37,570 bases of DNA from a virus (lineage: Duplodnaviria > Heunggongvirae > Uroviricota > Caudoviricetes): IMG/VR virus record IMGVR_UViG_2718218135_000004; one strand, 5' to 3'. Both the position numbers and the translations under genes were made by a program. Of the stretch, positions 1-37,570 are shown one piece after another. Every line of letters begins with the position of its first letter. Position 1 is the first letter of the stretch. Below the pieces are notes generated by a model. That model did no database searches and was not told the origin of the DNA. It worked only from the letters and a program-made list of their open reading frames with translations.

Positions 1-288
1 TCAATGGTTGGCGTCATTATCTTTTTCTCTTTCTGAACGTGAATATTGCGGTGGACGGTTCATCAGCTGTGGGGCAAGACGTTTTGCCACCTGAAGAATA
101 ACCACCACCGCAGCGGGAAGCATGAGCAAAACACCGAGAAAAATCATCAGAATCTGCACTTCTGGCCGAGAAAATGGCTCAGGCAGCGACAGGGAGTCGC
201 TTACCGACAGCAGCGCCACCGCCAGTAGCATCATTCCGATAAATTCCAGTATCAACACGCCTTTAGGCAATTTACCGATCGCGCGCAT
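1..288 (-). CDS. ybjC: small inner-membrane protein YbjC (95 aa)
   Basis: Complete ORF in six-frame track with stop at 1-3; hydrophobic; divergent neighbour of grxA as in E. coli synteny. Confidence 0.8.
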   Translation of the reverse strand: MRAIGKLPKGVLILEFIGMMLLAVALLSVSDSLSLPEPFSRPEVQILMIFLGVLLMLPAAVVVILQVAKRLAPQLMNRPPQYSRSEREKDNDANH

Positions 289-447
289 ACGCTTCCCTCT
301 GCAAAGTGAGCCTTCAGTCTAAAACTTTTCACTGTATTGTGTTTAACAGTTATAGCTTTTAGCAATTAATGCAACAGGTTAAACCTACTTTCAGCGAATA
401 CATTTTAGCGTGATCATTACAGGCATAAATCTATGAGGAGAGAAATA

Positions 448-705
448 ATGCAAACCGTTATTTTTGGTCGTTCGGGTTGCCCTTACTGTGTGCGTGCAAA
501 AGATCTGGCTGAGAAATTGAGCAATGAACGCGATGATTTTCAGTATCAGTATGTAGATATTCGTGCGGAAGGGATCACTAAAGAAGATCTACAACAAAAG
601 GCAGGTAAACCCGTAGAAACCGTGCCGCAGATTTTTGTCGATCAGCAACATATCGGCGGCTATACCGATTTTGCTGCATGGGTGAAAGAAAATCTGGACG
701 CCTGA
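448..705 (+). CDS. grxA: glutaredoxin 1
   Basis: 85-aa product from ATG 448 (MQTVIFGRSGCPYCVRAK, CPYC active site) with GAGGAG RBS upstream; ORF-track start 433 is an in-frame upstream extension. Confidence 0.92.
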   Translation: MQTVIFGRSGCPYCVRAKDLAEKLSNERDDFQYQYVDIRAEGITKEDLQQKAGKPVETVPQIFVDQQHIGGYTDFAAWVKENLDA

Positions 706-716
706 TCGTCTGACAA

Positions 717-733
717 GCCCTCGCGTTGAGGGC
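717..733. terminator. hairpin between convergent grxA and ybjM (bidirectional terminator)
   Basis: GCCCTCGCGTTGAGGGC stem-loop followed by T-rich tract TTTACTGATTTTTT. Confidence 0.6.
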
Positions 734-734
734 T

Positions 735-1112
735 TTACTGATTTTTTCTGTGCTGTGGTTTAAACAAACTACTGATAAATAAGAAACACAGTGCCCCCAG
801 CGCACACCAGAACACCGCGCTTAGTAACCATGCCAGCTCTTGCCAGAATGAGCGCGTCGGTGAAAAAAACAGCCGCATAATGAGCATCGAACAGGGTGCC
901 GCCAGCATTGCGCCAAACAGAGGTTTCAGGACTTCTCTACGCTGTGAAAAGAAGCTGGCGACTGCTCCAGGAAGAATGAAAAATAGCAAGCCGATTTCAG
1001 GATGCCCGGCAGCCCGAAAAGCGCCTTTCATGTGCGTCGCCAGAAAAAGGCACACCACAATGAAGAGGACAAAACAGCAGATTGCCCCCGCCCAACGTTG
1101 TTTATGTTTCAC
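735..1112 (-). CDS. ybjM: inner membrane protein YbjM (125 aa)
   Basis: Multi-TM hydrophobic ORF; position between grxA and ybjL matches E. coli synteny. Confidence 0.8.
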   Translation of the reverse strand: MKHKQRWAGAICCFVLFIVVCLFLATHMKGAFRAAGHPEIGLLFFILPGAVASFFSQRREVLKPLFGAMLAAPCSMLIMRLFFSPTRSFWQELAWLLSAVFWCALGALCFLFISSLFKPQHRKNQ

Positions 1113-1381
1113 TCGTTCCTCCTGACACTGCGTCTATCGAACACATTTTTCGCCAGTGTGGCGTTCAGTAAGATAAAGCCGCTTCGCATTCCATGCTAAT
1201 ATAGGCCAACGCAATTCATATAGCCGTTGATACCTAATGTGATTACACTAGTAAAATATATTGTTACTTTACTATCGTTTAGGTGCGCTGAATGAATCTG
1301 CGCCCTGAATTCTGGTAAAAAACATTATCGTAAATTACCATTTCTTTCAACAGCTTACTAGTAAACAAGAAGTTAGCCTCC

Positions 1382-3067
1382 GTGAATATAAACGTCGCCG
1401 AATTGTTAAATGGGAATTACATTCTGTTATTATTTGTGGTCCTCGCGCTTGGGCTATGTCTCGGAAAGTTACGACTTGGTTCGATCCAACTGGGTAATTC
1501 CATTGGCGTTTTAGTCGTATCGCTGTTATTAGGCCAACAACATTTCAGCATTAACACCGATGCGCTTAATCTTGGCTTTATGCTGTTTATTTTCTGCGTC
1601 GGGGTCGAAGCCGGACCGAACTTTTTTTCCATTTTTTTTCGCGATGGGAAAAATTACCTAATGTTAGCACTGGTGATGGTTGGCAGTGCGCTGGTGATCG
1701 CCTTAGGGTTAGGTAAGCTGTTTGGCTGGGATATTGGCCTGACGGCCGGTATGTTAGCAGGCTCTATGACGTCGACACCGGTTCTGGTCGGTGCTGGCGA
1801 TACACTGCGTCATTCCGGCATGGAAAGCAGGCAGCTCTCACTGGCACTGGATAATCTGAGCCTCGGGTATGCCTTAACCTATTTAATCGGTCTGGTGAGT
1901 TTGATTGTTGGTGCGCGTTACTTGCCGAAATTGCAGCATCAGGACTTACAGACCAGCGCCCAGCAAATCGCCCGCGAACGTGGCCTGGACACTGATGCCA
2001 ACCGTAAGGTTTATTTACCGGTGATCCGCGCCTATCGCGTCGGCCCGGAGCTGGTGGCCTGGACCGACGGCAAAAATCTGCGTGAACTGGGTATTTATCG
2101 ACAAACCGGCTGCTACATTGAACGTATTCGACGTAACGGGATTCTGGCAAATCCAGACGGTGATGCCGTGCTACAAATGGGCGATGAAATAGCGTTGGTA
2201 GGCTATCCCGACGCCCATGCCCGACTCGATCCCAGCTTCCGTAACGGTAAAGAAGTTTTCGATCGTGACCTTCTCGACATGCGTATCGTCACTGAAGAAG
2301 TGGTCGTTAAAAACCATAACGCTGTAGGTAAACGTCTCGCACAACTGAAGTTGACCGATCACGGTTGCTTCCTTAACCGCGTCATTCGTAGCCAGATTGA
2401 GATGCCGATAGATGACAACGTCGTGCTTAACAAAGGTGACGTTTTACAAGTCAGCGGTGATGCCCGTCGCGTAAAAACCATCGCCGATCGCATCGGCTTT
2501 ATCTCGATTCACAGCCAGGTCACTGACCTGCTGGCATTTTGCGCCTTCTTTGTTATTGGGCTGATGATCGGGATGATCACCTTCCAGTTCAGCACATTCA
2601 GTTTCGGCATGGGGAACGCTGCCGGGTTGTTATTCGCCGGAATTATGCTGGGCTTTATGCGTGCTAACCACCCGACCTTCGGTTACATTCCGCAAGGTGC
2701 ATTAAGCATGGTGAAAGAGTTCGGCTTGATGGTGTTTATGGCAGGCGTTGGTCTGAGCGCCGGTAGCGGTATTAATAACGGCCTGGGCGCGATTGGCGGT
2801 CAGATGTTGATTGCCGGATTAATTGTCAGTCTTGTGCCCGTGGTTATCTGTTTCTTGTTCGGTGCTTATGTATTGCGAATGAACCGCGCACTGTTGTTCG
2901 GCGCAATGATGGGCGCACGCACCTGCGCGCCGGCAATGGAGATCATCAGTGATACAGCTCGCAGTAACATCCCTGCGCTGGGCTATGCGGGCACCTACGC
3001 AATCGCCAACGTCCTGCTGACGCTGGCAGGGACAATCATCGTCATGGTATGGCCAGGATTAGGATAA
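1382..3067 (+). CDS. ybjL: putative AAE-family transporter YbjL (561 aa)
   Basis: 561-aa ORF from GTG 1382; N- and C-terminal TM blocks flanking a soluble central region; T7/T8 homopolymers at 1621-1645 read through in frame. Confidence 0.85.
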
Positions 3068-3179
3068 AACTGAAGTTGCCCTGAAAATGAAATTTTTTTG
3101 CACAACCGCAGAACTTTTCCGCAGGGCATCAGTCTTAATTAGTGCCACTGCTTTTCTTTGATGTCCCCATTTTGTGGAG

Positions 3180-3222
3180 CCCATCAACCCCGCCATTTCG
3201 GTTCAAGGTTGATGGGTTTTTT
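3180..3222 (+). terminator. rho-independent terminator-like hairpin in ybjL/prophage junction
   Basis: CCCATCAACC (3180-3189) ... GGTTGATGGG (3207-3216) followed by TTTTTT (3217-3222). Confidence 0.6.
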
Positions 3223-3302
3223 GTTGCCTGAAATTTATGCCTTTTAAAATCATGATGTTAGAAGCACTGTTTTTTAACGATGGCGACAAATTGGCGGCAG
3301 CG

Positions 3303-9276: not shown

Positions 9277-10449
9277 TTACGCGCTGACCTGGCTGGAGAA
9301 ATTCACCAGGTACTGATCGGTGATGCGCTGACGCAGCATCAGGTTTTCAAGTGGCGGCACTGGCGTGTAGTCGTAGTCGATGGTGAGTTTTCCGGCTTTC
9401 AGCGTGTCTTTGTCGTTCACCGACTCATCCAGCCAGCAATCACCACCAATGAGATAGCCCTGACTGACCAGGCTGCGCATTTTGGCGCGGATACCCTCGA
9501 TAATGTCGCGGGCCAGCGACGGATTCAGCGGTTTATCCACCGCCCACATGTGCGCTTCTGCCATCGTGTCCGTCAGCACCTGCGCCGTGCGGGTGTAGTT
9601 TTCGAAGGCAAAGAGCGGGTCATCACTCAGGCAGCGGGAACCCCAGAAGCGAAAACCGTCTTTGCGGATAAGGGTGGTGACGTCTTTCTGGTTCAGCAGT
9701 CCCGCATCGGTTGCCGGGTCCTGCAGATCCCAGAACACATCAGCAGAAATTCCGGTGACACCGTTAACGCCCACGTTGGACAAGCTTTTGTGCCATCCGG
9801 TCTGCTCGTCAATTTTGGCGCGCAGACCAAGCGCACGGGCGGTGGCATAAGCCGTTGCTTCGGCATTCAGCACCGTGTCCCAGCCAGTAAAGTCGGGCCA
9901 GATCAGCATTCCTTCACGCTGACTGAAGTTTTCACGGTAAGTGATTGCTTCCTGCACTGTCTTGCAACCATACGCTGACAGGTAAGCAAATCCACGCAGG
10001 CTTTGCGCCACGCTCAGCAACTCAGTAGCTACCGCCTTCGTGTCGTGACCTGGCACGCCGAGAATGCGCGGTTTAACGCCGAGCTGTGACTGGGCAGATA
10101 ACAGGGCTTTCATGCCTGTTTTTTTACCTTCAGCGGTCACTGCTCCGATGATATTGGTCGTGGTTTCTTCTTCCGTTTCACCCTGCGGCACACGCACAAC
10201 AACGGTCACGGGTTTTGCCTGGTCAGCGATGGCATCCAGCGAACGAGCCAGCGTGCCTGACTCACCCGCTTTACCGCTGGCAGTCAGCACATCAGTGAGC
10301 AGCACGGGTTTATTAAGAGGAAACATTTTTGCATCGGCATCATCGCCCGTGCAGACCATACCCACGATGGCGGTGCTCACCGTGGTAATGGATCGGGTGC
10401 CTTCGTTGACTTCAACAACGCGCACCCCGTGGTGGTAATCCTGAGCCAT
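9277..10449 (-). CDS. FI: contractile tail sheath protein gpFI-like
   Basis: 390-aa ORF, first gene of the F operon, Ogr-type dyad upstream. Confidence 0.9.
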
Positions 10450-10525
10450 AGTGGCGAACCTCCTGATTGGATTAGGCTTCGCCCTATGTTGAAGTGATTG
10501 TGCCTGACAAACAGCTAAGCGCAGT

Positions 10526-10543
10526 TGTACCGTTATTCACACA
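10526..10543 (-). promoter_or_regulatory. P2-type late promoter element (TGT-N12-ACA dyad) upstream of FI
   Basis: TGTACCGTTATTCACACA, i.e. TGT-N12-ACA, about 85 nt upstream of the FI start codon. Confidence 0.6.
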
Positions 10544-10591
10544 AAATGACGGTATTTGTCTGCTTTCAGGGATAATCAAAATAAAGCTGAT

Positions 10592-11158
10592 TCAGGGAGA
10601 TTTATTGTTCTTATTTGCCGGAAATTTTCGATAAATGGTAGAAACGCCTACATCAAAAATCAGTGCAATACGCTGTCTTGATTCTCCGGCCTCGAGTAAA
10701 CGCCCAATCTGTGCCCACTGTTCGCTGGTCAACTTAGGACGGCGTCCACCTACTCTGCCTTTAGCACGAGCTGCAGCCAGCCCCGCCCTGGTACGTTCAA
10801 CTATCAGTTCGCGTTCCATTTCAGCCAGGGCACCCATGACATGAAAAAAGAAACGGCCCATTGGGGTGCTGGTATCAATACTGTCAGTCAGGCTTCGGAA
10901 ATTCACGCCACGCTGGCGCAGCTCTTCTATCAGCGTAACAAGATGCCGCATACTGCGCCCCAGTCTGTCCAGCTTCCAGACAACCAGCGTGTCTCCTGCC
11001 GATAGTGTCCTGAGCAGCTTTTTCAGCCCCGGTCTGTCGGACTTGGTGCCACTGATTTTATCCTCAAAAATCCGCTCACATCCCGCACAGTTCAGTGCAT
11101 TGCGTTGCAAATCGGTGTTCTGGTCATTTGTTGACACGCGTACATAGCCAATAAGCAT
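10592..11158 (-). CDS. pin: serine DNA invertase (Hin/Gin/Cin/Pin family)
   Basis: MLIGYVRVSTNDQNTDLQ N-terminus with catalytic Ser, resolvase core, C-terminal HTH (VSTIYRKF); recalled close similarity to e14 Pin. Confidence 0.9.
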   Translation of the reverse strand: MLIGYVRVSTNDQNTDLQRNALNCAGCERIFEDKISGTKSDRPGLKKLLRTLSAGDTLVVWKLDRLGRSMRHLVTLIEELRQRGVNFRSLTDSIDTSTPMGRFFFHVMGALAEMERELIVERTRAGLAAARAKGRVGGRRPKLTSEQWAQIGRLLEAGESRQRIALIFDVGVSTIYRKFPANKNNKSP

Positions 11159-11213
11159 GATCATCCCCCTGAATAAAAACCGGAGATGATGCCAGTTAGC
11201 CGTTATCTCTGCA

Positions 11214-11239
11214 TTTTCATAAACGTTGGTTTGGGAGAA
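11214..11239 (-). repeat. 26-bp invertase crossover site (left inverted repeat)
   Basis: Reverse complement TTCTCCCAAACCAACGTTTATGAAAA; first 14 nt identical to the site at 13111-13136; two 12-bp half-sites around central AA. Confidence 0.8.
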
Positions 11240-11578
11240 GCGGCTAAAAGGAATGTAGGGACAGGGGCGAATCAGATACCTGATATGGGTAGCTTCACGC
11301 TTTCTGTTTCAGGTACTGGATATCAAAAATTACCATCAGGTTTTATTCTTCAGTGGGGCTCAATCGGCGCACCAGGCATTGCACAGGATGTAGTAACCCA
11401 TTTTCCGATTGCATTTCCAAACAGATGTCTGCGTGTTTTGGTCTCACAAGACTACACACCAGATAGCGGGGCTGTTGGTTATATTGCCTGCGCAGGTTTT
11501 AGTGCCGACCCGGTTAAATTTATATCCAGAGCCAGTACTCCTGGCCTCGGCGCTTCATTTTTAGCGTTAGGCTGTTAA
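11240..11578 (+). CDS. alternative tail-fibre C-terminal segment (Sv'-like; promoterless, expressed only after inversion)
   Basis: Frame runs through the crossover site encoding ..NVGLGE|AAKRN..; after inversion it fuses in frame to the H constant region ending ..TYLGLGE. Confidence 0.7.
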
Positions 11579-11599
11579 TTTAGCTATATGGAGTGAAAA

Positions 11600-12040
11600 A
11601 TGAATTACATATATTCCGCGACTACAAACTCTTTCTATCCGCTGGAGATGAAAGAGGATTACACTCAAGCTGACTCATGGCCAGATGATGCTGTTGAAGT
11701 TGATGAGCAAGCGTATATTGAGTTTTCCGGATTACCGCCGAAAGGAAAAATCCGTATCGCTGGAGAAAATGGTTTTCCTGCATGGTCCGAAATTCCACCA
11801 CCAACACATGAGGAACAAATTGCTGCAGCCGAATTGGAGAAGCAGCAATTGATTAATCAGGCCAACGATTATATGAACAGTAAACAATGGCCTGGTAAAG
11901 CGGCTATTGGTCGTCTGAAAGGTGACGAACTGGCGCAATATAATTTGTGGCTGGATTACCTGGACGCACTGGAACTGGTCGATACTTCCGGTGCGCCAGA
12001 TATTGAATGGCCTACGCCTCCGGCAGTTCAGGCCAGATGA
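11600..12040 (+). CDS. alternative tail fibre assembly protein (Tfa/U'-like)
   Basis: 146-aa ORF following the Sv' segment; shares C-terminal motif (TSxAPDIxWPxxP) with the convergent Tfa at 12012-12614. Confidence 0.8.
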   Translation: MNYIYSATTNSFYPLEMKEDYTQADSWPDDAVEVDEQAYIEFSGLPPKGKIRIAGENGFPAWSEIPPPTHEEQIAAAELEKQQLINQANDYMNSKQWPGKAAIGRLKGDELAQYNLWLDYLDALELVDTSGAPDIEWPTPPAVQAR

Positions 12041-12614
12041 CATCCGGCGCGGTGCTGGTATCTGTTGCCGTCACCGCGTCAATGTAATCCAGCACAGCGT
12101 TAAGTCGGGTGGTTTCTGCCTGCGTCAGCTTCCGCCCGGCCTGCAATTTCAGTTGAATCAGACTGATGGAAGCCATTGCAGTATCAATCAGTGACTGACG
12201 CTGTGCTTCTGCCGCGTCTACTGCGGCGCGATGCTGTGCCTCAGTATCGGTCACCCATTTCTCACCATCCCATTTATCGAATGGCGTTAACGGGGCGATA
12301 GTGGTTGTATTTTCAGGGTAATCACCCGGAGCTGTGATTTCTTTTGATTCTCCTGTTTCAGTGCTATATACCGTTTCACCACGGTGGTCTGGCACATATA
12401 CCCATGAGTTAAAATCTGCAGAACGGCAGATTGCATAACCAGCTTTATATGAGTCAGGAGCATCTAAACAGGAGCATGCCGGAATGCCGACACCCACAGC
12501 AAGATATTCAGTTGATGTGAAAATATATTCCCGTGTTTCACCATCATAGTTATAAACAGTAATATTTCCTGCCTGGGTGGCGATAAATTCGTTATTTAAT
12601 ACGGCGTAATCCAT
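12012..12614 (-). CDS. G: tail fibre assembly protein (gpG/Tfa-like)
   Basis: 200-aa ORF; start overlaps H stop (TAATG); C-terminal TSTAPDVIWPELP motif. Confidence 0.85.
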   Translation of the reverse strand: MDYAVLNNEFIATQAGNITVYNYDGETREYIFTSTEYLAVGVGIPACSCLDAPDSYKAGYAICRSADFNSWVYVPDHRGETVYSTETGESKEITAPGDYPENTTTIAPLTPFDKWDGEKWVTDTEAQHRAAVDAAEAQRQSLIDTAMASISLIQLKLQAGRKLTQAETTRLNAVLDYIDAVTATDTSTAPDVIWPELPEA

Positions 12615-14173
12615 TATGCAGCCCTCACGATATACGCAAATGCCAGGTTCCGTGGTCTGGTTTCTTTAATTAAAGAGGAGGCATCAGGTGAACTCACTGA
12701 TTCAGCACCATTTCTTCCACCAGTGGTATAAGTAAAAACTCTTTCACTGTTAGACCAGTAATCCACACCAACTGTTTTTGCTGATGAAAAAATGGTTTCA
12801 TCAGATATAACCTGTTCTATTCCATACGGGATATTAGTAACTGACCCCACTTTTGTAGGTATTCCATGATTATGAGAAATTACTGCATGCTCTTGATTCG
12901 TTAATAAAGTACGACCGCTATCCACTCCACGCCCGTCATCCCAGCCACGAATAAACTCACCACGTAAATCAGGCAATTTATTTGTCGGATAAGCCTTTGC
13001 CAGTTCCGGGTATTCTTCAGCAGAAAAAGCGGCACCGTTGCATTTCAGCCAGCCTGTTGGCGGAGTGGCGGAAGGCCACGGAACAGGCACGCCAACGGGT
13101 AATGCCGAACCTTCTCCCAAACCAAGGTATGTGAGAAGACCTGCTACATCCTTTCCACTCAAATTAGTCAGCGTATTGTCCAGCGGTTGTTTACCTGCCA
13201 GCGCATTAAGCATTGTCGTGGCAAAGTTCGGATCATTCCCCAGTGCCGCCGCCAGTTCGTTCAGTGTATCCAGTGCCTCAGGTGCAGAACCCACCATTGC
13301 TGCAATCGCCGATTTCACAAAAGCCGTAGTGGCAATCTGTGTATTGTTGACCGACTGCGCCGCCGTGGGGGCTGTTGGCGTTCCGGTGAGTGCAGGACTC
13401 GACAGCGGCGCTTTCAGTGCCAGCGCATTGTTAATGGTGGTACTGAATTTCGGATCATTGTTAATGGCTACGGCTATTTCTTTCAGCGTGTCCAGCGTGG
13501 CTGGCGCACCATTAATAAGAGCCGTCAGTGCCGCCTGAACAAATGCGGTGGTCGCAAGCTGCGTGGTATTATTCCCCGCCGCTGGCGTTGGCGCTTTGGG
13601 AGTTCCGGTAAACGTCGGACTTTCTTTGGGTGCATACTGTGAATGCGGGTCCGGTGCGGCAAGATGTTTTGCCATCAGGTCATCCACGTACACCTTCAAC
13701 TCCAGTGCTTTGTCATCCACATACTTGCGGGTTGCCAGCACTACGGCAGGGTCGATTTTCAGGGTGATATTGTCCGTGCTGCTGGTAATCAGCACCATGC
13801 GCACGGTCTGGGTACGCCCGCTGCCTTCAGCCAGTTGCGGCTTATAGCTTTCCGGGCAGTTTCCCACGGCAATCAATGCCCCGGACTCATCAAACAGGCC
13901 CACTTCACGTATCCACCAACCGCCCTCGTTTTCAGGGATCACCTGTTCAGCAATAATCTGGCTGCTATTCTGCGGGTCGATATAAAGCATATTCAGCGCA
14001 GCCCGGCGTTTCTCATTTACCAGTGCCGTCTGCTTTGCGTCCGGCGTTGGCAATACTCCGCCGCCATCGCCCACCGCCATATGGGTAATTTTTAGCGGCA
14101 CACCGAGCGCGGCGGCGCTGGCAAGTTTCGCCGCGCCAATATCCGTCAGCAGGGTATAAAATTTTGTGCTCAT
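12614..14173 (-). CDS. H: tail fibre protein gpH-like (constant N-terminal part plus currently fused variable C-terminus)
   Basis: 519-aa ORF with repeated TTAFV..ALxxLxxAL blocks; crossover site embedded at codons TYLGLGE. Confidence 0.9.
   Translation of the reverse strand: MSTKFYTLLTDIGAAKLASAAALGVPLKITHMAVGDGGGVLPTPDAKQTALVNEKRRAALNMLYIDPQNSSQIIAEQVIPENEGGWWIREVGLFDESGALIAVGNCPESYKPQLAEGSGRTQTVRMVLITSSTDNITLKIDPAVVLATRKYVDDKALELKVYVDDLMAKHLAAPDPHSQYAPKESPTFTGTPKAPTPAAGNNTTQLATTAFVQAALTALINGAPATLDTLKEIAVAINNDPKFSTTINNALALKAPLSSPALTGTPTAPTAAQSVNNTQIATTAFVKSAIAAMVGSAPEALDTLNELAAALGNDPNFATTMLNALAGKQPLDNTLTNLSGKDVAGLLTYLGLGEGSALPVGVPVPWPSATPPTGWLKCNGAAFSAEEYPELAKAYPTNKLPDLRGEFIRGWDDGRGVDSGRTLLTNQEHAVISHNHGIPTKVGSVTNIPYGIEQVISDETIFSSAKTVGVDYWSNSERVFTYTTGGRNGAESVSSPDASSLIKETRPRNLAFAYIVRAA
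13111..13136 (+). repeat. 26-bp invertase crossover site (right inverted repeat, inside H)
   Basis: TTCTCCCAAACCAAGGTATGTGAGAA; internal dyad of 12-bp half-sites around central AA; encodes LGLGE in the H frame. Confidence 0.8.
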
Positions 14174-14775
14174 GGATTCACTCTCATTGTGTCAATAACA
14201 TGGACCGCCCCGCCTTCATGCGCGGTGCCACCGGAAATAATCGTTTCGTTGATATACGGATAGATCGTGATTTCTTCGCCAAGATAACTGGCGGCTCCCA
14301 CCCAATGCGGGCCGCTGGTCTGCAGATTGATGGACATGCCGATCATGTGACGGCTACATGGTTTGGCATCGCTTATCAGCCGCTCAAGTTCCAGATAGGT
14401 ATCTTCAGTGATGCCCTGGTCCTGCACGCCGATGTCCAGGCGAAACGTGCCCGGTGTTTCTCCGGTCTGCCACCACTCAATAATGCGGATCAGAAAGCCG
14501 AACGGCTCCACCACCCGCCGCACGGCACTGGTGGTCCCTTTATGCTGATGAATATAAAAAGCATCCTTCACTACCTGGCGTTTGACGCTTTCTGTCCAGC
14601 CTTCGTCCCAGCGATCCACAGAGAACGCCCAGGCGAGATAAGGCAGGAAGCTGACCGGGCAGGTAGCCGGATTCCACAAGTCACGCAGCGGCACCTGCAG
14701 ATCAGAAATCCCGCTGCACGTTTGCGCCAGTCGGCGCTCCAGTGAAGTTGACCCCGATGGCAGCAGACTATTCAT
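14170..14775 (-). CDS. I: baseplate assembly protein gpI-like
   Basis: 201-aa ORF between J and H, P2 order. Confidence 0.85.
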   Translation of the reverse strand: MNSLLPSGSTSLERRLAQTCSGISDLQVPLRDLWNPATCPVSFLPYLAWAFSVDRWDEGWTESVKRQVVKDAFYIHQHKGTTSAVRRVVEPFGFLIRIIEWWQTGETPGTFRLDIGVQDQGITEDTYLELERLISDAKPCSRHMIGMSINLQTSGPHWVGAASYLGEEITIYPYINETIISGGTAHEGGAVHVIDTMRVNP

Positions 14776-16709: not shown

Positions 16710-17913
16710 ATGTATAAAATTCAAAGCGTCACAATTAATGGCTTTTGGCAGCGATTAAACTGTTCCTGCTCATTTAATGATGATGTAAATATTATTATAG
16801 GCCGAAATGGCACGGGTAAAACAACCTTTATGAACCTTCTGCACTCAATATTATCCCTTGATTTGGACAGTATTAACAATGCTGATTTCAATAGTGCCGA
16901 AATAAAACTTAAAGATAAAAAAAAGACAAAAACAATCAAAGTCAAAAAACTTGAAAGCGAATTCGTTATTTAACACTGATGATAGAAGAATATCTCTTAG
17001 TTATAGACGTAGAGTGCATGATGAAACAGAAGAACTAAGAACAGAACTAGCAAAACTAGTCTCGCTTTCTTCTTTATCTGTTTACAGATTAAGAAATAGT
17101 GATGATTTTGAAGTTAAAGATAAATATGGCTCTCGTTTTATCAACCCTGTTGACTATAAGTTATCAGAATTAATACAGGAACTTACAAAATATCAACTTG
17201 AACTATCCCAGAAAGCCAGAGATATCGCATTAGAACTGCAAAAAGAGGTTCTGGCATCAATACTTTATAGCAAGGAAGATATGGAGAATCCTGCTTACAA
17301 CATTAACTTTAACAAAGAGGAAGAAAAACAAAACCTCCTTAATGCATACACACAGTTAAATGCTATTGATCAAAACATTCGTAAAAAAATCAGCTTTCAT
17401 GTTGAAACAATTAATAATACCATTTCGGAATTAAAGAATAAAAGTGAAAGTGGCTTTGATATTCGTTCGATCGAAGCATTGAGAAAAACACAAAAAATAA
17501 TCAAAATGTCATTAACTTCAAAAGAGAAAACATCAAAAATATTTTCTCCAATAGAACAATTCTTAAGCATACTAAGAAATTTTATCACCGATAAAGAATT
17601 TCATTTTCAATCGGGATTGTTAGTCATAAATAACACCTATGGGCCAATAGTTTTAGAAAGTTTATCTTCTGGTGAAAAACAACTGCTAATTTTATTCATT
17701 GAGACCCTCTTGCAAAGAGGGCAACAATATATTTTCCTAACTGATGAGCCTGAGCTTTCCTTACATATTCAATGGCAAAGAAATATTATCCCTGCCATAA
17801 AAAAATTAAATCCTAATGCACAAATTATTGCTGCAACCCATTCTCCTGAAGTTGCATCTAAATATAAAAACGCCATTTTCAATATGGAGAGATTAGTCAA
17901 TGCTAATCAATGA
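16710..17913 (+). pseudogene. ABC-type ATPase (AAA_15/21-like, AriA/OLD-ATPase-like), split by a +1 frameshift at an A8 tract (16917-16924)
   Basis: Walker A GRNGTGKTT in the 87-aa N-terminal ORF; SSGEKQ, Walker B YIFLTDEPELSLH and ATHSPE in the 320-aa C-terminal ORF; the two ORFs overlap 16951-16973 in different frames. Confidence 0.7.
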
Positions 17914-18756
17914 TTCTAATGCAGAAAACTTTTCTTGGTCTAATGAAGCGGAAAATGTGATCAGTTTATTTTATGATGCTGATATTATGGTCTATGTTGA
18001 AGGTGAAGATGACATTGCTTTTTGGGAAATAATTTTTAAAAAAATGGTCGTTTTAATGTAGAAGTTCAAGATGTTGGTGGATGTGAAGCTTTACAACCAT
18101 ATATCGAAAAAATAACCTCAGGAGAAATAAACGCTATAGTTGCCAGAGATTCGGATCTAAACCATTTTTCTGACAACATAGTAAAGCATACAAATATTAT
18201 TTACACAAAGGGATATTCAATAGAAAACACAATCATTGATGAAAAAATCATATCACACATACTCAAAAACACAGGCCGTTTTTGCACGAAAAAAATGCAG
18301 GAAATAGATGTGGAAAATTGGCTTTCTAATTTCTATAGCAACATTGAGAACTTAATAATACTAGATATTCACAATCATTTAAATAAATTAGGATGCTCCG
18401 TAATTGGTGATTCCTGTGATCGTTTTATGCAATCAAGAAATTCATACAATATATGCAAGGAAAAAATAGATGAATATATCAATAGACTACCTGAATCGTT
18501 TACTACTAATGGTTTAGCAGAAAAAAACAACATTCAATTCCCAGAAAATACATCTATAAATCATTGGGTGAAAGGGCACTTTCTTTTCTCAGCATCATTA
18601 AGATTTATAACAAACTTTTTGGCATCCATCAATAAAAAAACCTCTATATCCAAGGATAGTTTTTACGCAAACATCTTGTCTGCATTTGAGATTTTTTATA
18701 CAGAAGAACATGCTGATTATAGTTATTACAATCAAAAGATAGGGGCCATCACATAA
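17900..18756 (+). pseudogene. Toprim-like (OLD/DUF4435-type, AriB-like) protein, split by a frameshift at an A7 tract (18038-18044)
   Basis: ATG 17900 overlaps the ATPase stop by 14 nt; frame 2 reads ..VYVEGEDDIAFWEIIFKK then stops at 18059-61; frame 1 is open from 18040 to 18756 (..AIVARDSD..GYSIEN..). Confidence 0.65.
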
Positions 18757-28059: not shown

Positions 28060-28699
28060 GTCTATCTCCATTCCACATGTTGAATGTAGGGTAATACTTC
28101 CTTTCAAGCAAAAATGAGACAAGGATCTTGAAACCTAATTTAAACTTGCTTGCGCGCGCTCGTATCCCCGCCACGCCTGCCCGCTTTATGTAGTAGTTTT
28201 CATGCACCTGCATGACATGAGCAAAAGCCCGCCAGTTCTGGCATGTCTTAGCCAAACCGATCCTCAAACGATCATGCGAACTCATGCAGCATAGACATGC
28301 ATGACATGAAAATCGGTCAAACCTTGAAACCAGTCATAAATATGAGCCAGCTTAATACACACTAAATAGCTGCGTCTAATACTGCTACACCTGCCGTTTA
28401 CTGACATGTGGCATGTCGCGTAAGGACAACATACTGTAGGCCAGATACAGCAGGATCAGGCGAAGAAAACGGCCCCACGCCTTACCCAGCAAGGGCCAAG
28501 GGCTAACCGAAAGTGGAGCATTATTCCGCGCAGTTATTTAGTGTCAGCTCTTTTGAGCTAAAATCAAGTTTCAACATGAGGGTCTGTGCAGGCTTTCTCA
28601 TCCCGCTAATTTATACAGCACACCTATATGGCTATGAGTTTGTCATGCCCGCTAATCCTGTTAGGATTAGCCTTGTTTTTTTACGATTGGGATAGGGAT

Positions 28700-29506
28700 A
28701 TGAAGAAATTAACTGGCGTAATTGCTTTTGCTCTGCTGCTTACTGCTTGTGACAAACCGAAGATCGATGCATCAAGCGATCAGTCGATGAAAGAGTCCAT
28801 TCAAAAAGTAAGAGAGTCCTTACCTGCAGATAAAAAAGCTCAGTTTGATGATGCAGTTAAAGTCGTTGCCTTTAGCCAAATCAACATGAGAGAGCTAATG
28901 CAGGCTGGAACGTCTTCTGGGGACGTCTACGAAACAAAAATTAAGTCAGCGTTGGAAGGTAAAACTGGTGATGAGGTTATAAATTACGCACAAACTATTC
29001 GCCTTGAGCGTGAGAAGAGAGAGAAAGAACAGGCTCTGCAAGAAATAAAAGAACTGGAAGCCAAACAAACCTCTGCAACACAGGCTGCGGAAAAAATGAA
29101 AGCCTTCAAGGTCGAACGTTCCCGTTTTTATTTCCAGAAAGAGGATTACGGCAATGATCAGCCAATTCTGGATATTAGCGTTGAAAACGGAACAGACAAA
29201 GCGGTTGCCAGAGTATTCTTCAAAGGAGTTATTGCCAGCCCAGGAAGAAGCGTCCCTTGGTTCTCTGACGTCTTCAACTATAAAATTTCTGGAGGTCTGG
29301 AACCAGGTGAGAAAGCCAACTGGAAATTAGCCCCTAATAGATACTCTGATTGGGGAAAACTTAAAGTTCCGGCTGATGCTATATTTACCGTCACAGTCAT
29401 TGGCCTTGAAGACGCAGATGGGAAATCGATCTATGGTGACGCCGAGTTTTCAGAACGCGATGCTGACAGACTGAATCAACTTAGAGATAAGTACCTTTCT
29501 AAATAA
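28700..29506 (+). CDS. lipoprotein (268 aa) with coiled-coil segment
   Basis: MKKLTGVIAFALLLTAC signal peptide plus lipobox; ORF-track start 28628 is an upstream extension. Confidence 0.7.
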   Translation: MKKLTGVIAFALLLTACDKPKIDASSDQSMKESIQKVRESLPADKKAQFDDAVKVVAFSQINMRELMQAGTSSGDVYETKIKSALEGKTGDEVINYAQTIRLEREKREKEQALQEIKELEAKQTSATQAAEKMKAFKVERSRFYFQKEDYGNDQPILDISVENGTDKAVARVFFKGVIASPGRSVPWFSDVFNYKISGGLEPGEKANWKLAPNRYSDWGKLKVPADAIFTVTVIGLEDADGKSIYGDAEFSERDADRLNQLRDKYLSK

Positions 29507-30323: not shown

Positions 30324-32738
30324 TTAATACAGGTTCCGCCACTTATCATCTTCCTGCAAACGCTGGTTCCGATAGAAGATACGCAGGCCTGCTCCTGACG
30401 GAATACTGCCACCGCAAAGGAGCAAATCGACCTCTTTCTCGCTGCCATCAAATCCTCTGGACTTCAGTTCATAGACGAGCTGCTGACGCTGATACTCTGT
30501 AATTCGCTGTTTGTAGTCTTTACGCCGTTTCGGTTTAACCAGGCGCAATCTTGCTGCCAGTTCCCGGCGCTCTTTTTTGCTCATACTGTGCAGGTAATCG
30601 TGCAATTCCTTGTCATCCATGCAGGTAATGTCCGTTCTGGTATCCCCATCTGCTGATTCATCTTTCTCATGTTGGTTCAAATTTTCAGCAAGGGGACAGT
30701 TATTGCCACGAGTCCAAGGGGCGCAAGCGCCCTGGTCGGCTGCCGCCTCCTGAACGTCAACGGCCTTACGAACCATTTTCCACTTCACCGCATGAGTGCA
30801 GATCTTGCCCTCTGCAATGGGTGACCAGATGCCATAAATACGAATGCCGTGATCGCCATAGGCGGTCGGCTCTTCGTTAATTTCATAAGCAGTTCTGATG
30901 AGGTGATATTTGCGGGGAACCAGTACGCCGCCCTGCTTCATGATGTAAGTGGCAAAACAACCAGCATCAGCAGCAGCCAGGATTGCATCAAGGCGCGGGT
31001 TATCCAGTACCGGCGCACCTGCTTTTTTGTCCCCCTGTTGCCTTGCCGCCTGACCAGCCAGCAATCGCAGTTCACGGTAAGCCTGACGCCCCGGAATGCC
31101 AAAGAAGCGGAATTGCTGAACACGATGCAAAGACGCCCAGGCATTCACGTATTCAGCGTTATCACGCAGAGATTTACCCGTTTCCTTGCTGATCTCGCCA
31201 GCCAGACCACGCCCGTCAATGTTCTTGCTGATATATTTCGCGATGTAGCTTGTCGGCGTTCCTTTGCGCGGGTTAATCAACTCAGACTTAAATCGTGGTC
31301 CCGTGTTATTCCCCAGCTCCTCGCGGTCTTCACGAATGGCAAACTTACGCAATAAAGCAGTAATGGCGCGGCGATCTTTTTTGCGCATAAAACACAACAG
31401 GTGCCAGTGAACTGTACCGTCATGATGCGGCTCAGCCACCCGCACGCCATACCAGCGCAATCCGGCTTTGTGCATCGCCTTACGAAATGCAGCAAACATG
31501 CCGACCAGATAATCACTGCTTTGTCTTACCGTCGCATTTGTCCAGGTCGGGTTGGGCCTGCCGTTATTTAGCGTGGAATGGAAACGTGACGGACAGGTGA
31601 TGGTGTAGAAAACGGCGCAGTCACCGCGCATTTCCGCGATAAGCTCCAGGCCTTTAACACAGGCCATCATCTCATTGCGGCGATGCGCAGGGTTGCTGCT
31701 GCTGGCGTTTACCACATCCTCCATGTCCAGCGTGTCGCCGTCTTCGTTCACCAGTTCATGAGAACGAAAAAACTCCAGCGACTTACGGCGCTGCTCACGT
31801 TTATGCATCACGGCTTCATAGCTGACATAAGGAGATGCTTTTTTGCTAACCAGGCAGACAGCGCGCAACTGCTCTTCCCGCCATTCGCAACGCATCTTCC
31901 ATAATTTCCGATACCACCAGTCGGCGCACAACATACGCGCCAGCGAACCCGGAATGAGTTCATAGGGCACGGGTTTACGGCGGTTTCTTTTCCGGCGGAG
32001 TTGCTCAAACGCAGGAGGAATGACATCCAGACGCAGGGTTTCCGCCGCCACCCTTTCCCATGTCTTGCGGATTTCTTCTGGCTTAACGTCATCGGTGGCA
32101 TACAAATCGCCACAAGCTGCATCAAGACACATGCTCATATGCGCAGCAACAAGGGTGGACAGGCGTTTCACCTGATCCTGACTCATTTCAGGCAGGATCA
32201 GCAGGCCGTCCAGCCCTTCATGGCTTGCCATAAAGCGAAAAGAAGTGGATAGCTGACAGTCGCGTACATGCTCCAGTCGTTCCAGACATGGCTTAATCGT
32301 CTCACGCAAATAGCGGGAATAAGCCTTTGGCCTGCCCAGGCTGCTGAAGTATTCGATACGTTGCATCAGCGGTTTGCTGATATGGGAAGGCTGGGCATTG
32401 ACGTCCGCCAGAATGACCATATCTGGATTAAAACGCTGCTGCTCATGCGCCAGCTTTGCCCGGCTAATGAGCTTATCCTGCTCCATTTCGCGTTGGACAG
32501 GATCACGGGATTCATTAAAGAAATAACGCTCCCAGACCTGATCACTTAGTGCCTCGCGACGCAGTTGTTCCTGCTCATTATCGACAGCGTACAGAGTGAT
32601 CAGGTTTGAAAGCGCAGAAACCGGCGCAACTTCCGCCAGGTCCAGATAAGGGTTAATGGCCTTTTTCGGGCTGTTCCATGAGAATGCTGCGGCGACCTCG
32701 TTAAAGCCGCTGCAGTTGTTCATATCATCATGGCTCAT
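30324..32738 (-). CDS. A: replication initiation protein gpA-like (rolling-circle nickase)
   Basis: 804-aa ORF at the gpA position. Confidence 0.85.
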
Positions 32739-35407: not shown

Positions 35408-35552
35408 AAGGCAACATTCCTTCTAGATATGGCTTGTGGCGAGCCGTTGTTTGTCGTGATTAGTAGTGAAGGCTCCAAAAGAACACTTCTGGCTCAACTT
35501 TAAGATCGCTTTTGGAATCTGTCAACGAATTTTGGATTTCTTTGGAGGACTT
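35408..35552. promoter_or_regulatory. divergent immunity switch region (pR/pL-type promoters and operators)
   Basis: 145-bp intergenic region between divergent apl and cI; promoters and operators not individually mapped. Confidence 0.5.
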
Positions 35553-36122
35553 GTGGATTTCAATAGCGGCGGTAAGAAAGCCATAGAACGTTTAGTTGAA
35601 GCATATGGGTTCGGTACCCGTCAGGCTCTCTGTGATCATTTAGGTGTTTCTAAGAGCACCATGGCAACGCGCTATATGCGTGATATTTTTCCAGCAGATT
35701 GGGTAATCCAGTGCGCCCTTGAAACGGGCACCTCGCTTAATTGGCTAACAACAGGGCATGGTTCAAAGCAAGCATCAGCAAATACAAATACTATAGAAGT
35801 AGAAAAATATTTATTGTCTGATGGAGCATTGCAGAAAGACGGTTTTTATATTTTTGATAAGGGATTTCTACCCTCTACGTTTAAAAAACCTTTTGTCATC
35901 ACAGATAACAATTCTGAATTTATTTGTGATAAAGAATTTGATGATATACGTGATGGTAAATGGGTAATAAGTATTGATGGCGAAATAACGATCCGTGACA
36001 TTACTCGTTTACCCGGTGGAAGAATCTTCGTCGAGGGTGGAAACAGAGCCTTCGAATGCAAGATAGAAGACATTGAAATAATTGGTAAAATTATAAGTTT
36101 AACAGTCAAGTATGTTAAATAG
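35553..36122 (+). CDS. cI: CI-like immunity repressor (186 CI family)
   Basis: GTG 35553 preceded by GGAGGA RBS; ERLVEAYGFG ... CALETGTSLNWLTTG recalled from 186 CI; ORF-track start 35466 is an extension. Confidence 0.8.
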   Translation: MDFNSGGKKAIERLVEAYGFGTRQALCDHLGVSKSTMATRYMRDIFPADWVIQCALETGTSLNWLTTGHGSKQASANTNTIEVEKYLLSDGALQKDGFYIFDKGFLPSTFKKPFVITDNNSEFICDKEFDDIRDGKWVISIDGEITIRDITRLPGGRIFVEGGNRAFECKIEDIEIIGKIISLTVKYVK

Positions 36123-36329: not shown

Positions 36330-36517
36330 CTTTTGCTTTTATATCTGCGTCTAAAATAAAAATGAGCCGCAGGTTAACCGCAAAAGTTACATGCTCACAT
36401 AGCAAAAAGAATAGCCAACTTCATTATGGCTTCAGTGAGATGTATGGTCGTAGGATTTCATACATTGACACTGGTTATACATACAGTAAAAATGCTCTCT
36501 ACTGGAGGGCATTTTTT

Positions 36518-37570
36518 ATGGCAGTACGAAAACTCACCACAGGGAAATGGCTTTGCGAATGTTACCCCGCCGGACGAAGTGGGCGTCGTGTGCGTAAACA
36601 ATTCGCCACCAAAGGCGAAGCTCTGGCTTTTGAGCGTCACACGATGGAAGAAACCGAATCAAAGCCCTGGCTGGGCGAATCAGTGGATCGTCGAACCCTG
36701 AAAGACGTGGTTGAGCTATGGTTCAAACTACATGGTAAATCTCTGACTGCTGGACAGCATGTCTATGACAAATTGCTGCTGATGGTTGACGCCCTAGGCA
36801 ATCCTCTTGCAACCGATCTCACCTCTAAAATGTTTGCCCACTATCGAGATAAACGCCTGACAGGCGAGATCTACTTCAGCGAGAAATGGAAGAAAGGAGC
36901 AAGCCCGGTCACCATTAACCTGGAGCAAAGCTATCTAAGTAGTGTTTTTAGCGAACTATCCCGTCTGGGCGAATGGTCGTATCCGAACCCACTGGAGAAC
37001 ATGCGAAAATTCACCATCGCAGAAAAAGAGATGGCATGGCTTACCCATGAGCAGATTGTTGAATTACTGGCTGATTGCAAACGTCAGGACCCAATTCTGG
37101 CTCTGGTAGTCAAGATATGCTTAAGCACAGGCGCACGCTGGCGAGAAGCCGTAAATCTTACCCGCTCACAGGTGACCAAATACCGAATTACCTTTGTAAG
37201 AACGAAGGGGAAGAAAAACAGAAGCATCCCTATCAGTAAAGAGCTTTACGAAGAGATCATGGCGCTTGATGGGTTCAATTTCTTCACAGACTGCTATTTT
37301 CAATTTTTATCCGTGATGGAAAAAACGTCTATCGTGCTCCCTCGCGGTCAACTGACACACGTTCTGCGCCATACTTTTGCGGCGCACTTCATGATGTCGG
37401 GTGGAAACATCCTGGCCTTACAAAAAATTCTCGGACACCACGATATAAAAATGACTATGCGTTACGCACATCTGGCACCGGATCATCTGGAAACGGCGCT
37501 CCGTTTCAATCCTCTGGCAACATTGCCAAGTGGCGACAAAGTGGCGGCAGCGGTTGGCATTACCCCGTAA
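36518..37570 (+). CDS. int: tyrosine integrase (P2/186 family)
   Basis: Catalytic R (ARWREA), HxxR (LRHTFAAH) and Y (RYAHL) motifs; start at MAVRKLTTG (36518); stop codon is the last triplet of the window. Confidence 0.9.
   Translation: MAVRKLTTGKWLCECYPAGRSGRRVRKQFATKGEALAFERHTMEETESKPWLGESVDRRTLKDVVELWFKLHGKSLTAGQHVYDKLLLMVDALGNPLATDLTSKMFAHYRDKRLTGEIYFSEKWKKGASPVTINLEQSYLSSVFSELSRLGEWSYPNPLENMRKFTIAEKEMAWLTHEQIVELLADCKRQDPILALVVKICLSTGARWREAVNLTRSQVTKYRITFVRTKGKKNRSIPISKELYEEIMALDGFNFFTDCYFQFLSVMEKTSIVLPRGQLTHVLRHTFAAHFMMSGGNILALQKILGHHDIKMTMRYAHLAPDHLETALRFNPLATLPSGDKVAAAVGITP

Follow-up and report, generated by a model that had tools for sequence, protein, structure and literature searches.

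The window, by which we mean the whole stretch of 37,570 nucleotides that was analysed, carries a site-specific inversion switch of the Pin/Gin/Cin type (Din family) in the tail-fibre operon of a P2-like E. coli prophage, a reading to which we give a probability of about 0.9. The locus has the anatomy of such a switch and is homologous to known ones, inversion leaves the fibre gene in frame, and the homologous segment is found naturally inverted in relatives. The arrangement is common and routinely annotated, and inversion in P2-like E. coli prophages has already been published (PMC4272514; bioRxiv 10.1101/2024.10.15.618418). The locus is an ordinary, known system that leaves current understanding unchanged; the value of the analysis is that the locus can be filed confidently as a Pin-type switch and that one coordinate has been corrected.

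Prophage context

The tail genes of the prophage, as established from the ORF map and from protein domains, run in the order V-W-J-I-H-G ... FI-FII-E-T-U-D with cargo between G and FI, which is a feature of P2-like phages (Peduoviridae), and relatives annotated as P2-type have a matching gene order. In the P2 reference, fun(Z) lies between G and FI, the interval that here holds the silent fibre module and the invertase. This agrees with an earlier, sequence-only reading of the same DNA, which had placed the invertase in the slot where P2 carries Z/fun. A decayed PARIS-like cassette is found at 16710-18756 of the same prophage. Since these PARIS-like cargo genes, which lie near the switch, carry deletions, some decay has taken place in the prophage.

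Invertase gene and putative enhancer

Two features lie directly outside the invertible segment.

10592-11158, minus strand: Pin-type serine DNA invertase, 188 aa (Pfam Resolvase PF00239, 2.3e-53; HTH_7 PF02796, 5.8e-16)
11069-11140, minus strand: putative Fis-dependent recombinational enhancer (gene nucleotides +19 to +90, homologous to the enhancer annotated in P1 cin)

The open reading frame of the invertase reaches an ATG at 11164; we place the start at the ATG at 11158 because a Shine-Dalgarno sequence, GGGGGA, precedes it by 5 nt and because homologues start there. The protein falls into PHROG 125 'DNA invertase' (1e-100), matches the Mu Gin structures 3uj3 (E 1e-92) and 4m6f over its full length, and is 85% identical to e14 PinE, 77% to P1 Cin and 73% to Mu Gin. 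With PinE as its closest relative and sites of pix sequence, it is assigned on sequence grounds to the Pin subgroup. The catalytic S9 is present, together with R7, R42 and the D-R-L-G-R motif. The Pin-like serine invertase that the sequence-only reading had described immediately outside the segment, free of inactivating mutations, is indeed there.

Enhancer-dependent invertases have a basic patch on helix B (Hin K47, R/K48, R/K51) and contact Fis through Q151/R154/L155 in helix 1 of the DNA-binding domain (PMC3798978). By these criteria, the residues reported to be specific to Fis/enhancer-dependent invertases are conserved in the present protein: K46, K47, R50 and Q-I-G-R-L (the Q-x-x-R-L patch) line up with the corresponding residues of Gin, Cin and Pin. 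Inversion of the segment would, by analogy, probably require Fis and an enhancer. The candidate enhancer has G-N13-C cores at +22 to +36 and at +71 to +85 and can be aligned gap-free with cin, gin and pinE, with 55 of 72 positions identical to the P1 enhancer and 63 of 72 identical to pinE. Identity at synonymous codons, in the enhancer interval versus the rest of the gene, was 16/23 versus 54/96 for pinE, 10/19 versus 38/92 for cin and 9/22 versus 36/85 for gin; against these three genes, the interval has no clear excess of synonymous-site conservation over the rest of the gene. The enhancer is therefore a putative one, assigned by homology in a coding stretch that is itself strongly conserved, as the synonymous-site excess is not convincing and coding constraint is inseparable from conservation. 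The suggestion that a Fis-dependent enhancer be sought in the 5' part of the invertase gene thus led to a homologous stretch, but not to a distinct signal at synonymous positions.

In a consensus scan of 10400-14400, neither the invertase nor the silent plus-strand module showed a sigma-70-like promoter. The same scan gave a weak terminator-like hairpin on the minus strand at 11197-11178, on which no conclusion rests.

Crossover sites

Two sites in inverted orientation bound the segment.

11214-11239, unstranded: invertase-proximal crossover site, pix-type, TTTTCATAAACG TT GGTTTGGGAGAA, central dinucleotide 11226-11227
13112-13137, unstranded: crossover site inside H, TTCTCCCAAACC AA GGTATGTGAGAA, central dinucleotide 13124-13125, at codon 350 of H

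The pair is the top-ranked inverted repeat in 10400-14300 (27 nt, 85% complementary, 1870 nt apart). When the sites are aligned in the inverted register, 22 of the 26 positions match, including an identical arm of 14 nt that is present exactly twice in the 37.6-kb window, once per strand; the number of matches expected by chance is 0.31, even with 2 mismatches allowed. Each site consists of 12-bp half-sites around a 2-bp core, AA/TT in both, and the centre is at the same place as the crossover that the P1 record marks in cixL and cixR. The invertase-proximal site is identical over 26/26 positions to the pinE-proximal site of e14 (K-12); 55 bp separate it from the invertase start downstream of it, against 54 bp in e14 and Mu. 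The site inside H encodes L-L-T-Y-L-G-L-G-E on the minus strand; its inner half-site (12/12) and its centre are identical to those of the e14 sites. In its outer half-site, position 13132 is a T, where all inspected relatives have a C, including those seen in both orientations. Proven gix, cix and pix sites differ from one another at this position of the half-site.

These results bear on most of what the sequence-only reading had said about the sites. It had described two inverted 26-bp sites sharing a 14-nt identical arm, a gix/hix-like layout of 12-bp half-sites around a central AA, the peptide TYLGLGE within H and a second peptide in the plus-strand ORF. The left site, the arm and the layout were all recovered, and both peptides occur in the translations; the alignment to known crossover sites, which it had proposed, showed that they are of the pix type. 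The right site, which it had given as 13111-13136, was misplaced by one base and lies at 13112-13137.

When the whole window was searched for the 14-nt arm, with as many as 2 mismatches tolerated, these two sites came up and no third one. This result speaks against a multi-site shufflon offering three or more tips, of which Min of p15B and the P2-like EPEC locus with three repeats are examples. Such variants are known in related P2-like prophages (PMC4272514), and the invertase found here occurs with many different cassette pairs; with two arm matches in the window and exactly two tip-plus-Tfa modules in the segment, we nevertheless give a shufflon almost no credence.

Two fibre modules in one invertible segment

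The segment and the fibre genes that it affects are as follows.

11227-13124, unstranded: invertible segment between the crossover points, 1898 bp (in-silico inversion; homologous inversions in relatives)
13125-14173, minus strand: constant part of the tail-fibre gene H, aa 1-350, outside the segment (Pfam Phage_tail_fib N-terminal domain, 6.4e-65)
12614-13124, minus strand: variable C-terminus of H, aa 351-519, a Collar-domain, StfE-like tip in the expressed orientation (Pfam Collar, 4.5e-15)
12012-12614, minus strand: tail-fibre assembly gene of the Collar tip, 200 aa, TfaE-like, in the expressed orientation (Pfam Caudo_TAP, 2.1e-33; PHROG 105, 3.4e-98)
11227-11578, plus strand: silent alternative C-terminus of H, a gp53-like/YfdL-like tip (Pfam Gp53-like_C, 1.9e-15)
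11600-12040, plus strand: silent tail-fibre assembly gene of the gp53-like tip, 146 aa (Pfam Caudo_TAP, 1.8e-37; PHROG 188, 1.3e-65)

The two tip-plus-Tfa modules are in opposite orientation and both have intact reading frames. At the DNA level, the variable C-terminus of H is 89% identical to e14 stfE and the gene of the 200-aa Tfa is 88% identical to e14 tfaE. The two tfa genes overlap by 29 nt at their 3' ends, as does the tfaP/tfaE pair of e14. In an NCBIfam scan of the five proteins, no family was hit at its curated cut-off.

When the segment was inverted in silico, with the crossover at the central dinucleotide, the 519-aa fibre became an uninterrupted, in-frame fibre of 466 aa, the constant part of H being common to both products; a fused fibre protein of 466-474 aa is annotated in relatives. 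The locus thus has the build of the Mu G and P1 C segments, with a constant N-terminus outside and two in-frame C-termini, each with its own Tfa, inside. It had been claimed from the letters that both orientations give in-frame fibres, that the opposite site lies in frame in a plus-strand ORF followed by a second tfa gene, and that inversion swaps the C-terminus of H together with its Tfa. All this holds: the plus-strand frame carries the gp53-like tip with the 146-aa tfa gene behind it, and the in-silico product exchanges the Collar tip and the 200-aa Tfa for these two.

Orientation of the segment in relatives

Both orientations exist in nature. Among complete E. coli genomes, 33 have the arrangement of the window and 25 have the inverted one. 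At the homologous locus, the near-clonal strains NQ3 (5,196,957 bp) and LS4 (5,196,956 bp) are related by a perfect 1872-bp inversion: the segment has 0 mismatches, the flanks are identical and the breakpoints fall within the sites. A copy of the segment with 99.6% identity points the other way in E. coli A41, and the form of the locus inverted in silico matches the database better than the native form does (A41, 97.9% over 100% of the query). Very many assemblies carry this invertase allele without a single difference in its 188 residues, next to one orientation or the other and together with a wide range of cassette pairs. Sequencing and PCR have verified inversion in e14 and in the P2-like prophages of EPEC (PMC4272514).

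Orientation differences could in principle stem from RecA-dependent recombination between short inverted repeats, or from assembly errors, rather than from the invertase. Inverted repeats can support rare RecA-mediated inversions, and a mixed population forces the assembler to choose one orientation. However, the identical arm of just 14 nt is well under the length of efficient RecA substrates, the breakpoints fall within sites of exact 12-2-12 pix/cix architecture and sequence, and the two orientations are nearly equal in frequency (33 versus 25). Moreover, should assemblies of mixed populations choose different orientations, this would in itself imply active inversion. We regard this explanation as very improbable.

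The switch might also be a fossil, its sites and invertase intact but its segment fixed in the lysogen, for instance with the invertase unexpressed or with the T at 13132 weakening binding. That the consensus scan detected no promoter upstream of the invertase, that the base difference at 13132 is unique to the right site and that the neighbouring PARIS-like genes carry deletions would all be compatible with a fixed segment. Against this, the very same invertase allele (188/188 residues) stands beside both orientations in very many assemblies, the left site has the sequence of the e14 site, at which inversion in K-12 is about 1:1 (PMC4272514), position 13132 is not conserved among functional sites, and the reading frames of both cassettes are intact. 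A fossil is thus unlikely, and the Pin-type switch is probably still inverting in the source strain of the window.

Possible exchange of cassettes at the sites

The 26-bp sites may also be junctions for the exchange of whole tip-plus-chaperone cassettes between prophages, a proposal that we put forward tentatively and consider rather doubtful. In A41, the 99.6%-identical cassette sits in flanks that are just 95% identical, and mismatches of the flank type end at 11219 and restart at 13132, both inside the outer half-sites. In CP157132, the flanks and sites have zero mismatches, and it is the cassette that diverges, from 11242 and up to 13106. Taken together, the breakpoints of A41 and CP157132 narrow both junctions of such an exchange down to stretches of about 22-25 bp (11220-11241 and 13107-13131), which fall in the inner half-site and core. 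Such positions would fit an intermolecular or double-site exchange mediated by the invertase rather than ordinary homologous recombination. Module acquisition associated with the sites is reportedly an old idea, from the work of Sandmeier, Iida and Arber on Min and Cin, so the exchange reading, even if true, refines a known theme.

Proposed mechanism and implications

In the mechanism that we propose, the 188-aa serine invertase would bind the two 26-bp pix-type sites as dimers and, by analogy with its family, would probably assemble with host Fis on the putative enhancer within the 5' portion of its coding sequence. Both sites would then be cut at the central AA/TT, and a 180-degree rotation of subunits followed by religation would invert the 1898-bp segment. 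The late V-W-J-I-H transcript would encode residues 1-350 of H in every orientation. In the present state it would continue into the Collar-type tip and the 200-aa Tfa, giving the 519-aa fibre, and in the inverted state into the gp53-like tip and the 146-aa Tfa, giving the 466-aa fibre. As orientation selects between two alternative tips, a population of lysogens would release particles of two receptor specificities, a form of host-range bet-hedging. That inversion would change the host range is suggested by the unrelated domains of the two tips and by knowledge of Mu and P1.

One prophage that yields particles with two receptor-binding tips is relevant to the prediction of phage host range and to the annotation of tail fibres. 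The 'truncated', promoterless fibre ORF beside the invertase would be a functional alternative, exon-like module and not a pseudogene, and the orientation recorded in any single assembly is arbitrary for genome annotation.

Comparison with known systems

The e14 Pin / P segment system (pinE, stfE-tfaE / stfP-tfaP) shares with the present locus the invertase (85% identity), the invertase-proximal site (26/26), the inner half-site with its central AA, the spacing between site and invertase (55 bp here, 54 bp in e14), an stfE-like/tfaE-like module at 88-89% DNA identity and the 29-nt convergent overlap of the tfa genes. It differs in that e14 is a defective lambdoid remnant whose stfE is annotated as a pseudogene fragment, whereas the switch described here sits in a P2-type tail operon with the full constant part of H. 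The second module is gp53-like/YfdL-like here, and StfP/TfaP in e14.

Mu Gin with its G segment and P1 Cin with its C segment likewise keep the constant fibre N-terminus outside and two C-termini with their Tfa proteins (U/U') inside. They also have 26-bp sites with a 2-bp crossover and invertases that are 73-77% identical to the present one, whose 5' region is homologous to the annotated P1 enhancer. In contrast, the core is GA/TC in Mu and AA/TT here, cixL of P1 lies at the 3' end of cin while the site here lies upstream of the invertase gene, and the G and C segments measure 3-4.2 kb, against 1.9 kb here.

Other P2-like loci, among them those of EPEC E2348/69 (PMC4272514) and the described P2-like phage hotspot (bioRxiv 10.1101/2024.10.15.618418), likewise have their switch between H/G and FI and consist of the same components. 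RefSeq gives an identical gene set in the annotated phages Cartapus (NC_070909) and 500465-1 (NC_049342). The present locus differs from these P2-like invertible tail-fibre loci only in which alleles are combined in its two cassettes. Fin of Salmonella Fels-2 we take to be a further invertible tail-fibre locus of the P2-like prophage kind. Finally, the Hin / H segment system of Salmonella has an invertase of the same family, the 26-bp layout with an AA core and the Fis/enhancer contact residues, but flips the promoter of flagellin genes, whereas inversion here swaps the C-termini of a protein.

Results

The switch lies in a P2-like prophage that makes up the remainder of the window beyond a host flank (1-3300; ybjM, ybjL) sharing 99.9% identity with many E. 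coli strains. On the minus strand, the gene order is D-U-T-E-FII-FI, invertase, switch and H-I-J-W-V; at the far end lie a CI-type repressor gene (35466-36122) and an integrase ORF (36362-37570) that runs up to the edge of the window. At the same ybjL site, E. coli EC596 carries a degraded relative. The sequence-only reading had placed the invertase where P2 carries Z/fun, and rightly so, the interval between G and FI of P2 holding a terminator and fun(Z). From 10592 to 14173, we found five genes and gene parts in total:

10592-11164, - strand: serine recombinase ORF (Resolvase, 2.3e-53; HTH_7, 5.8e-16)
11186-11578, + strand: fibre-tip ORF, the C-terminus of its product being a Gp53-like_C tail-fibre tip domain
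11600-12040, + strand: tail-fibre assembly gene, 146 aa (Caudo_TAP)
12012-12614, - strand: tail-fibre assembly gene, 200 aa (Caudo_TAP)
12614-14173, - strand: fibre gene H, 519 aa (Phage_tail_fib N-terminal domain and Collar domain)

The convergent tfa genes share 29 nt (12012-12040), just as tfaP and tfaE of e14 do. An inverted repeat within them (I2; arms at 11950-11967 and 12076-12093) is probably no terminator but the trace of a conserved motif at the Tfa C-terminus (LDYLDA / LDYIDA), which both strands encode.

A repeat search of 10400-14300 returned, as its top inverted repeat, the very pair of 26-bp sites proposed from sequence. The left site is indeed at 11214-11239, while the right one, inside H, is at 13112-13137, one base rightward of the 13111-13136 first assigned, and reads TTCTCCCAAACC AA GGTATGTGAGAA. 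Placed in inverted register, the two sites match at 22 of 26 positions and share an identical 14-nt arm. Within the window, this 14-mer is confined to the two sites, once per strand, against a chance expectation of 0.31 matches even allowing 2 mismatches. Alignment with gix, cix and pix sites, taken directly from the Mu, P1 and K-12 e14 records, showed that our sites match the pix sites of e14: the invertase-proximal site is identical to the pinE-proximal one (26/26), and the other e14 site has the same inner half-site (TTCTCCCAAACC) and AA core as the H site. Their centre coincides with the P1 crossover, which is annotated as falling between the middle two nucleotides of cixL and of cixR. The outer half-site of the H site (TTCTCACATACC, coding strand) is unlike relatives at one position, at which the proven half-sites of gix, cix and pix vary too; its ATACC ending is found in cixR of P1 as well. 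The invertase-proximal site lies 55 bp from the invertase start, compared with 54 bp in e14 and Mu. Between the two, the minus strand carries a weak hairpin resembling a terminator, with a T-run after it (11178-11197), which might shield the invertase from read-through of the late operon.

The invertase likely starts at the ATG at 11158 (188 aa), which is preceded at 5 nt by a GGGGGA Shine-Dalgarno sequence and is the start used in homologues and RefSeq relatives. The protein is 85% identical to PinE of e14, 77% to Cin of P1 and 73% to Gin of Mu, whose crystal-structure sequences it matches over their full length (E 1e-92), and it has kept both the nucleophilic S9 and the conserved arginines. 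A fossil switch, no longer able to invert, is unlikely, and we infer that the switch is active in the window's strain. McLean et al. (PMC3798978) described a basic helix-B patch and a Q-x-x-R-L patch in DBD helix 1 as uniquely conserved in Fis/enhancer-dependent invertases; both are present here (K46, K47 and R50 in helix B; Q-x-x-R-L in DBD helix 1). Over its first 150 nt, the invertase gene can be aligned gap-free with gin, pinE and cin. In P1, an enhancer is annotated at cin +19..+90; the homologous interval here is 11069-11140, with 55/72 identities to P1 and 63/72 to pinE. The window, gin and pinE each have G-N13-C cores at +22..+36 and +71..+85, whereas the first core of cin, as read from the alignment, ends in A instead of C. 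Since this interval also codes for the best-conserved part of the protein and its synonymous-site conservation is not clearly higher than in the rest of the gene, a Fis-dependent enhancer at 11069-11140 is only plausible.

We inverted the 1898-bp segment in silico, with one cut at each central dinucleotide (11226/11227 and 13124/13125). The crossover site in H translates to L-L-T-Y-L-G-L-G-E, its core TT being positions 2-3 of codon 350. H keeps residues 1-350 and its Collar-type tail gives way to a gp53-like one, so that the 519-aa fibre becomes a 466-aa fusion, in frame and free of stops, with the 146-aa Tfa gene starting 21 nt downstream. The claim that each orientation yields an in-frame fibre together with a chaperone of its own therefore holds.

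Both orientations occur in nature. Among 5,426 complete E. coli genomes, searched with a 2.9-kb query of which at least 80% had to match, the window's arrangement was found in 33 and the inverted one in 25; the best match overall was that of A41 to the inverted query (97.9% identity, uninterrupted across 100% of the query). Across the 10.9 kb compared, the flanks of two yak isolates, NQ3 and LS4 (chromosomes of 5,196,957 and 5,196,956 bp), are identical, and the only difference is a 1872-bp inversion with 0 mismatches, the identical stretches stopping inside both 26-bp sites. An inversion by RecA or an assembly artefact could likewise leave two genomes in opposite orientations, but with end points inside the sites both are unlikely. 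The exact 188-aa invertase protein is widespread: in the assembly collection, the index lists it for 4,440 blocks. In homologous loci of other assemblies, it adjoins Collar/gp53-like pairs in both orientations (inverted in L011 and L016, as in the window in L013 and L014), and also other cassette pairs. At another such locus (L012; CP192515.1, 3028529-3039095), the identical allele adjoins FI-FII-E-T, and glycosyltransferase and large ABC-transporter genes replace the fibre side; it appears to be a truncated prophage remnant retaining the invertase.

Cassette mosaicism shows in two relatives. In A41, the cassette is 99.6% identical to that of the window and the flanks ∼95%, flank-type mismatches ending at 11219 and restarting at 13132. 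In CP157132 (L016), the cassette is strongly diverged and the flank pieces are 100% and 99.6% identical, with 0 mismatches from ∼10300 to 11241 and only four from 13107 to ∼14600, none in the right site. These identity steps fall inside the crossover sites and confine both exchange junctions to ∼22-25 bp at each site, in its inner half-site and core. Such a pattern is compatible with cassette exchange at the sites themselves, via site-specific or very short homologous recombination.

Elsewhere in the prophage, a P2 hotspot between V and a virion-morphogenesis gene carries a PARIS-like defence cassette (16710-18756, + strand), made of an AriA-like AAA_15/AAA_21 ATPase gene and a DUF4435/AriB-like gene and found in only 2 of the 5,426 genomes. 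Compared with the intact copy of E. coli EC596 (418 and 285 aa), 53 nt (52+1) are missing from the ATPase gene at ∼16959-16965 and 1 nt from the second gene at ∼18037, so both genes are disrupted. A 292-aa ORF with a DUF6694 domain (28628-29506, + strand), between the portal gene region and an 804-aa ORF (30324-32738), had no PADLOC match and may be cargo of another P2 hotspot.

Discussion

The mechanism that we propose, a Pin-type conservative inversion that would switch which fibre tip and chaperone the late operon expresses, builds on what we observed: the anatomy of the locus, its homology, the compatible reading frames and inversion occurring naturally among close relatives. Dependence of the inversion on Fis and an enhancer is probable, and we infer that inversion alters host range.

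The kind of system and its genomic setting are both already described and would not surprise a specialist. In K-12, e14 inverts at ∼1:1, by sequencing and PCR, and in EPEC E2348/69 the tail-fibre loci of two P2-like prophages are invertible, with two variants in one and three repeats in the other (Goldberg et al., PMC4272514); a multi-site shufflon is unlikely in the window, with its single pair of sites. Egorov et al. (bioRxiv 10.1101/2024.10.15.618418) noted a DNA invertase and adjacent-gene inversion in this P2-like phage hotspot, and the same layout, with a gene named 'DNA invertase', is found in many sequenced and annotated Peduoviridae and prophages. The window's pairing of cassette alleles is one among many combinations with the same invertase.
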